This document shows, piece after piece, positions 29,104 to 30,419 of a DNA stretch of 64,000 nucleotides. The position numbers were made by a program, and so were the translations under genes. The stretch comes from Escherichia coli (GTDB taxonomy: Bacteria; Pseudomonadota; Gammaproteobacteria; Enterobacterales; Enterobacteriaceae): the NCBI RefSeq assembly GCF_030013205.1, contig NZ_CP122648.1; one strand, written 5' to 3'. Under the pieces are notes generated by a model. It was given only the letters and a program-made list of their open reading frames with translations, was not told the DNA's origin and searched no databases. Positions within the stretch are counted from its first letter, which is position 1, and each line of letters begins with the position of its first letter.

Positions 29104-30419
29104 TTAAGCGCGTTGATTGTCTTTCATCAACAAAGCGGTCATTGCGGAAATCAGGCATCCAGCCAGCAAATAAATAGCGACGCTATGCCAGTTCCCGGCA
29201 AAGTAAGTGATGAGTGCAGCGGCAATAAAAGGTGTAAATCCACCGCCAACCACACTGGCAACCTGATAACCGACTCCAGCGCCACTATAGCGATAACTGG
29301 CACCAAACATTTCGGTAAACATCGGTTGTTGTACACACACCACCATATCATGCGCAATGTTTGCCAGCATGATGGAGAAGAAAACTATCCAGAAAATAGA
29401 TTGTGCTTCAAGCGCCATAAAGAAAGGAAATGCGCTCAACGTTCCGAATAACGCACCTGTGATATAAACCCTGCGGCGACCAAAACGATCGGCAAGCCAG
29501 GCAAAACAGGGAATTGTCAGGCAGCTTAATCCACCGACCAGCAAACCAATATTAAGGAAAAGTTCGCGCGGTAACCCCATATTCTGGGTTGAATAATTAA
29601 GTGCAAAGGCAGTAACAATGTACATCGTCAGCAACTCGCACAGTCGTAGTGCAATAATCTTCAGGAAAGCACCGGGATGTCGTAACAGAGCTTCGATAAC
29701 CGGGATGCGTTTTTTCGCGGCCGCTTGATTATGTTGCTGTTGTTCAAATTCCGCGGACTCCTCCATGCCATTGCGCACCCACAATGCTCCCAGTACCAGT
29801 ACGATGCTAAACAGGAAAGGAATGCGCCAGCCCCAGCTTAAAAACTGTTCGTCAGTCGTCATCATACTGATCAATGAAACCAGTCCGGTTGAAAGCAGTA
29901 AACCTACTCCGTAGCCAACTTGTACACCGCTACTGTAAAAGGCTTTTTTATTTTTCGGCGCACTTTCAACGGAAAGCAACGCTGCGCCTCCCCATTCGCC
30001 GCCGACGGCAAATCCCTGAATGGCACGCAGTGTCATCAGCAAAATAGGTGCCCACCACCCAATGGTCGAGAATGAAGGAAGAATACCAATCAAGGCTGTC
30101 GCGATGCCCATCATCCAGACGGTCAGCATTAACATGCGCTTACGTCCCAGTCGGTCGCCAAAGTGACCGAAAATGACACCGCCTAGGGTCGGAAAAGGAA
30201 GCCGACACCAAAGGTGGCAAATGCGGCGAGCGTTCCCATCGCCGGGCTTACTTGCGGGAAAAACTCGCGATTAAACACCAGTGCGGCGGTAATGCCATAG
30301 AGTAAAAAATCATACCAGTCGACGACGGCACCAGCGAAACTGCCTAACGCAGCTCGTCGGGCGCGACTTAACGAAAGCGTCCCTTCATCGGGACGAGTGG
30401 AGATGAGCGTGGAGTCCAT
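29104..30419 (-). pseudogene. shiA: shikimate transporter ShiA (MFS), frameshifted
   Basis: N-terminal 78 aa (MDSTLISTRPDEG...LFRP) and remaining 343 aa lie in different frames; junction reads ccc-tag-gcg consistent with a 1-bp loss. Confidence 0.8.

Follow-up and report, generated by a model that had tools for sequence, protein, structure and literature searches.

A one-base deletion in the shikimate transporter gene shiA of a pig-associated lineage of Escherichia coli

In the stretch of Escherichia coli DNA analysed here (64,000 nucleotides, referred to as the window), the gene for ShiA, the shikimate/H+ symporter of E. coli (PMC8536597), is present as two open reading frames rather than one. 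Is this the signature of a sequencing error, of a transporter that is still made by an unusual route, or of a gene that has been lost, and if the latter, when and in which strains was it lost? We examined the lesion, its distribution among genomes, its setting and its probable consequence for the protein.

The lesion in shiA

Both shiA ORFs lie on the minus strand: one of 78 aa (30183..30419; MDSTL...GFLFRP, followed by TAG) and one of 343 aa (29104..30135), and the ends of the interval 29104-30419 coincide with the stop codon and the ATG of shiA. The frames of the 78-codon and the 343-codon ORF differ, and the junction reads CGA CCC TAG GCG. Against the NCBIfam model NF007414 (shikimate transporter equivalog, 438 positions, curated cut-off 538 bits), the 78-aa piece aligned with positions 1-78 (E=2.4e-42) and the 343-aa piece with positions 96-437 (E=5.1e-211), the latter scoring 701 bits and thus passing the sequence cut-off by itself. 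Because the two ORFs are colinear on a single ShiA model, they are pieces of one protein and not a chance pair of ORFs. An uninterrupted shiA frame of ~438 codons was not found in the window: a TAG follows codon 78, and the rest of the gene lies in another frame. The first-pass annotation had described shiA as split by a one-base frameshift into parts of 78 and 343 aa in different frames, joined at ccc-tag-gcg, and the ORFs, the matches to NF007414 and the sequence itself agree with this description.

The identity of the lost base was obtained by alignment with two intact alleles, those of K-12 (b1981, NP_416488.1) and of strain CFSAN018748 (swine, Denmark). It is a G at CDS position 234, the third base of the Pro78 codon CCG: the ancestral CGA CCG CTA GGC GGT became CGA CC- CTA GGC, which is now read as CGA CCC TAG. 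The deletion site lies between 30186 and 30187 on the minus strand, where CGACCGCTAGGC has become CGACCCTAGGC (a C is missing on the plus strand); the intact-frame sequence at window 30183-30190 would be CCGCTAGG, and the junction in its place is CCCTAGG. The allele of CFSAN018748 is the closest comparison, identical to the window at 1316 shared positions and throughout the 314 nt upstream (314/314), with the RHS/TPR island and the prophage likewise nearby; it differs in having the extra G, the single differing column in 1317, and in having an intact yeeL (1,053 nt) and an intact yeeJ (7,983 nt). When one base is put back into the window's shiA, the sequence becomes identical to CFSAN018748 shiA (WP_097310193.1). 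The K-12 gene, an orthologue in the same synteny whose 165 nt adjoining the ATG upstream are also identical, is more distant (30 substitutions in 1317 columns, and 5 amino-acid differences from the window's ancestral allele); in the alignment to it that had been proposed earlier, K-12 reads CCG CTC at the site and keeps an intact frame of 438 codons, whereas the window lacks the G at CDS 234 and ends after 78 codons. The first-pass annotation had the lesion as one T lost from CCC-TTA in a homopolymer region. Both details have to be revised, as the alignment with CFSAN018748 shows that the G of CCG-CTA was lost, and the ancestral context is CCGC, which contains no homopolymer; the CCC run arose through the deletion.

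Apart from this base, the gene is complete. Its 5' part (30187..30419, minus strand) comprises codons 1-77 and the first two bases of codon 78, and now reads on through CCC (30188..30186) into TAG (30185..30183), giving the 78-aa peptide. The downstream frame is open from window 30270, and the 3' part of the gene (30186..29104, minus strand) therefore retains every codon for residues 79-438 together with the stop, shifted to the -1 frame with respect to the start codon. The first canonical start within it is the ATG of Met96, from which the 343-aa ORF (29104..30135, minus strand) covers TM3-TM12 only. The yeeL-shiA intergenic region with the shiA promoter and 5' UTR (30420..30733, minus strand with respect to shiA) is unchanged.

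Distribution of the lesion and state of the neighbouring genes

A 61-nt query centred on the junction was compared with a collection of 5,426 genomes, and its exact sequence was present in 14 of the 5,316 matching complete E. coli genomes; the remaining matches listed for this query span 62 bases, that is, one extra base, and carry shiA annotated as one CDS. All 14 genomes with the lesion (K_EC180, W13-16, P15-25, ETEC1701, 1748, 4067-4071, 4075, 4079, 6333 and 6334) came from swine or wild boar. Among the records opened, K_EC180 originates from Korea, W13-16 from wild boar in France, and the ETEC series from Belgium and the Netherlands (the origin of this series is taken from the genome records; a search for literature on ETEC4067 found none). 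W13-16 and P15-25, typed as O139:H1 ST1, have assemblies that combine PacBio RSII and Illumina MiSeq data (PMC8798679); O139:H1 ST1 is the type of edema disease in pigs. In a public assembly collection, the exact 78-aa ShiA product was found on 95 contigs, in 221 index blocks, including the 5.04-Mb assembly GCA_900450405.1 and the draft GCA_002319355.1, both of which equal the window over ~3.2 kb. The window itself matched K_EC180 over 50 kb in a BLAST comparison with 0 mismatches and 1 gap, and therefore belongs to the same pig-associated lineage. This gap, the sole difference between the two over the 50 kb, is located in an A-run in the yeeN-amn intergenic region (27348..27354), in which the window is one A longer than K_EC180 and agrees with CFSAN018748; the difference could be real, or K_EC180 could have a homopolymer error.

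The A-run bears on the possibility that the shiA lesion is a sequencing or assembly artefact, in which case the living strain would have an unbroken frame and the missing base would be an indel error. The one-base difference between K_EC180 and the window at 27354 indicates that homopolymer-length noise does occur in these assemblies, and several further genes of the region are annotated as frameshifted. Nevertheless, we regard an artefact as close to impossible, because the identical lesion is shared by 14 complete genomes from several projects, PacBio+Illumina hybrids included, and the exact 78-aa product recurs on the 95 contigs, draft assemblies among them. A homopolymer indel error in particular was rejected, given the CCGC context and the fact that several laboratories obtained the lesion, in hybrid-polished as well as draft assemblies, and it is very unlikely that sequencing reads would show an intact shiA frame. 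The gene thus has an intact orthologue in a near relative that differs by the lesion alone, and the lesion is common to independent isolates and assemblies, as expected of a lineage-specific pseudogene. The lesion is a real, inherited deletion, and we consider it highly probable that it occurred once, in an ancestor of a worldwide lineage of pig edema-disease E. coli (O139:H1 ST1 where typed).

The gene order around the lesion, yeeJ-yeeL-shiA-amn-yeeN, is that of K-12, with the position of shiA between yeeL and amn conserved; the intact downstream neighbour amn (AMP nucleosidase; 27548..29002, minus strand) anchors this K-12-like synteny. On the other side, yeeL (glycosyltransferase family 9) is cut by an IS1 of 768 bp (31635..32402, minus strand) into a 5' fragment (30734..31634, plus strand) and a 3' fragment (32403..32563, plus strand), the insertion being flanked by a 9-bp target duplication, GTGCCTATA, at 31626..31634 and 32403..32411. 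Next to it lies a remnant of yeeJ, which encodes an inverse autotransporter / Ig-like repeat adhesin (32825..37400, minus strand); in comparison with the intact 7,983-nt gene of CFSAN018748, it has one 1-bp gap and lacks ~3.3 kb, with the deletion junction near 37440. The remnant contains a 357-bp direct repeat of 93.8% identity (36475..36831 and 37084..37440), corresponding to Ig-like domain repeats. As the deletion junction falls at the end of one of the two copies, a repeat-mediated deletion is suggested.

The lesions of shiA, yeeL (yeeL::IS1) and yeeJ occurred together in every member of the lineage examined, and all three genes are intact in CFSAN018748. The exact 9-kb arrangement of the window was recovered in 9 of the 14 genomes with the lesion, some with extra IS copies, and three other members inspected had the same shiA and yeeL lesions and a shorter yeeJ remnant of 1,290 nt. 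The view of the first-pass annotation that pseudogenes accumulate in this region holds for the lineage, in which shiA (a 1-bp deletion), yeeL (an insertion of IS1) and yeeJ (a 3.3-kb deletion with a frameshift) were broken independently, but the clustering of these lesions is unremarkable, because yeeL is already a pseudogene in K-12 and the region lies among tRNA-Asn-linked islands, RHS elements, degraded integrases and prophage.

Several features of the wider window illustrate this setting. A second IS1 copy of 768 bp (42973..43740), which splits a DUF1482 prophage gene, is 100% identical to the copy in yeeL (31635..32402); some lineage members carry extra IS1 or IS2 copies within the 9-kb interval, and a query with these 9 kb matched 16-26 places per lineage genome, mostly IS1, which suggests that the genomes of the lineage carry many IS1 copies. 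The annotation gives frameshifts in the three integrase genes at 15720..16981, 18345..18936 and 39026..40076, which lie by tRNA-Asn and tRNA-Ser genes and represent degraded islands or prophage; that at 39026..40076 is frameshifted in CFSAN018748 too and therefore predates the shiA lesion. At 21021..25747, a gene for an RHS core protein is followed by a gene for a small TPR protein; a 1-bp indel at window 25713 sets the latter gene apart from its counterpart in CFSAN018748 (561 vs 549 nt as annotated). An IS1 adjoins the RHS gene in W13-16, ETEC6333 and ETEC1701, and the region is rearranged in ETEC6333. At the start of the window (1..334, minus strand) lies the pdu (propanediol utilisation) cluster, in which the K_EC180 annotation marks a frameshift in the gene for the diol dehydratase reactivase alpha subunit.

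Age of the loss and selection

The unchanged promoter and 5' UTR of shiA, together with the lack of any further change relative to CFSAN018748, suggest that the loss is recent. The remnant has acquired no further substitutions in 13 of the 14 complete genomes; ETEC4067 alone carries an extra G-to-A change at window 29282 on the minus strand (L011 position 2638), corresponding to G380D, a non-conservative replacement in a hydrophobic stretch. This change would fit relaxed constraint, although it is a single event.

Other disruptions of shiA were encountered in the public assemblies. The truncated alleles P0005/P0015 (127 aa) and P0009 (112 aa) begin with the native N-terminus, then change to an out-of-frame tail and terminate early; such truncated alleles occur in E. 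coli and Shigella, some of them on Mb-scale contigs. Their breakpoints, after residues ~116 (P0005/P0015) and ~100 (P0009), differ from that of the window, and they are therefore independent events. ShiA fragments are also present in Shigella sonnei assemblies, on contigs of ~1-2 kb with products marked as partial. Taken together, the S. sonnei fragments and P0005/P0015/P0009 suggest that shiA has been disrupted independently in other lineages, and recurrent independent truncations fit a dispensable gene. A search for literature on the shikimate transporter gene as a pseudogene found nothing relevant.

A comparable case is the cryptic phnE of K-12, in which, according to PMC6469041, an 8-bp insertion causes a strain-specific frameshift that silences an accessory uptake system. 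It differs from shiA in protein family (ABC) and in the type of lesion. The phnE lesion reportedly reverts by repeat slippage; the shiA deletion, unlike that of phnE, is not located in a repeat, and easy reversion is therefore not expected.

The simplest account would be that an accessory transporter which the cell can do without has decayed neutrally, in a lineage with abundant IS1 copies and with pseudogenes next to the gene. Neutrality is what we infer, and neutral and adaptive loss are not separable here. Loss of shiA might have been favoured in this lineage of pig pathogens, either because an uptake route was removed or because the draw on shikimate during RyhB-mediated iron starvation was altered: as stated in PMC4676285, citing Prevost 2007, the shiA mRNA is a target activated by RyhB, the iron-starvation sRNA, and shikimate is a siderophore precursor. 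In favour of this, shiA is part of this iron-limitation response, the lesion has become fixed, being present in all lineage members seen on different continents, and the gene is independently disrupted elsewhere; however, hitch-hiking in a clonal lineage predicts fixation equally well, unrelated adjacent genes have decayed too, the recurrent truncations in other lineages are rare, and no phenotype is known. Adaptive loss is therefore, in our view, improbable, and we retain neutral decay as the preferred reading. Since the promoter and the RyhB-responsive 5' UTR are intact, transcription of the dead shiA gene may continue when iron is limiting.

Consequences for the ShiA protein

In a coarse Kyte-Doolittle profile of intact ShiA, the first two hydrophobic segments extend over residues ~30-49 and ~57-85 and the others follow after residue 95, which places the premature TAG inside TM2; the 78-aa peptide comprises TM1 and most of TM2. 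A phmmer search found no PDB sequence matching intact ShiA at E<=1e-10, and the topology used here derives from hydropathy and the match to MFS motif A only. The latter (GHFGDRLGRK, residues 85-94, located in the TM2-TM3 loop and identified by the regular expression G...D[RK].GR[RK], hydropathy and the codon map) is encoded at 30139..30168 on the minus strand, in the gap between the stop that ends the 78-aa ORF and the ATG that opens the 343-aa ORF. Motif A, in this member of the MFS metabolite:H+ symporter subfamily (TIGR00883), is thus absent from either canonical shiA product, and by hydropathy the full membrane-spanning set is absent from any one canonical chain. The SD-like pairing upstream of the internal ATG at 30135 (-4.9 kcal/mol) is weak but no worse than that of the native shiA start (-4.1 kcal/mol), so that a C-terminal fragment might be made, albeit one without TM1, TM2 and motif A.

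We propose that translation from the native start would stop at the TAG after 78 residues, inside TM2, leaving the other 360 codons intact but out of frame, and that a product restarted at Met96 would be devoid of TM1, TM2 and the motif-A loop, with the consequence that shikimate uptake is most likely lost. Judged from the sequence, loss of ShiA transport in the lineage is very probable. The first-pass annotation had called shiA inactivated: the break in the frame is directly evident from the ORFs and the alignment, and loss of function is a strong, sequence-derived prediction.

The current RefSeq annotation gives a different picture. In the lineage genomes inspected, shiA is not flagged as a pseudogene but appears as two overlapping CDSs, a 78-aa 'hypothetical protein' (WP_285251480.1) and a 'shikimate transporter' of 372 aa (WP_285251481.1; 29104..30222, minus strand), which begins with ATT and whose first 12 residues are out-of-frame junk (ICHLWCRLPFPT); other annotations of the identical sequence give 343 aa from the ATG. 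The functional call is likely due to the C-terminal part alone passing the family cut-off.

The annotation of two CDSs and no pseudogene could be taken to mean that shiA still works in split form, with the 78-aa peptide and a C-terminal chain from a restart (at the ATG, 343 aa, or at the ATT, 372 aa) forming a two-chain transporter. The high score of the 343-aa piece against the ShiA model (701 vs 538 bits) and the weak SD-like pairing upstream of ATG 30135 would be in line with this, and lactose permease, likewise an MFS protein, reportedly can be active when its N-terminal and C-terminal parts are made as separate, contiguous polypeptides split in loops. Those splits were engineered, contiguous and located in loops, whereas in shiA the canonical pieces are not contiguous (neither includes the 17 residues 79-95, which hold the last part of TM2 and all of motif A) and the break falls inside a hydrophobic segment. 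The ATT start with its 12-residue junk leader is an annotation convenience and no evidence of initiation, and the arrangement occurs in just 14 of 5,316 genomes. A working two-chain ShiA is thus a very slight prospect.

Programmed or leaky -1 ribosomal frameshifting, by which full-length ShiA would be produced from the broken gene, fares worse still. Two heptamers of the form X XXY YYZ exist formally in codons 1-79, T TTT TTA (nt 111-117) and T TTC CCG (nt 159-165), but a -1 shift at the former meets a TAA in the target frame at window 30273, and a shift at the latter swaps residues 56-78, the whole of TM2, for the charged out-of-frame sequence ASKPGDGNARRICHLWCRLPFPT. Both heptamers are native and unchanged in the intact allele and therefore predate the lesion, there is no slippery heptamer at the lesion itself and no usable -1 site in codons 1-79, and the two-frame arrangement, restricted to the same 14 of 5,316 genomes, is not conserved; rescue by frameshifting is scarcely conceivable. 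Stop-codon read-through was rejected directly from the sequence, as it cannot restore the frame.

Returning to the reading of shiA as a gene lost from this lineage, we assign only a small chance to the remaining departures from it taken jointly, namely a regulatory or selective role (the dead shiA transcript as a RyhB decoy, or loss of uptake selected in the pig gut) or a working split transporter. The shiA of this lineage is an ordinary lineage-specific pseudogene: the gene and the kind of lesion are known, the genomes are already public, and no new mechanism is involved. Its scientific weight is small, as it is routine for an accessory transporter that is dispensable to decay in a single clonal lineage of pathogens. 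In practical terms, analyses of gene presence/absence and pan-genomes will wrongly score shiA as functional in the lineage genomes, and the CCCTAGG junction provides a simple marker common to all 14 complete genomes of the pig-associated lineage, two of them typed as O139:H1 ST1. For the biology of these bacteria, if shikimate uptake is indeed lost, the lineage would be without the RyhB-activated import route for a siderophore precursor, a change that is not expected to be of importance.
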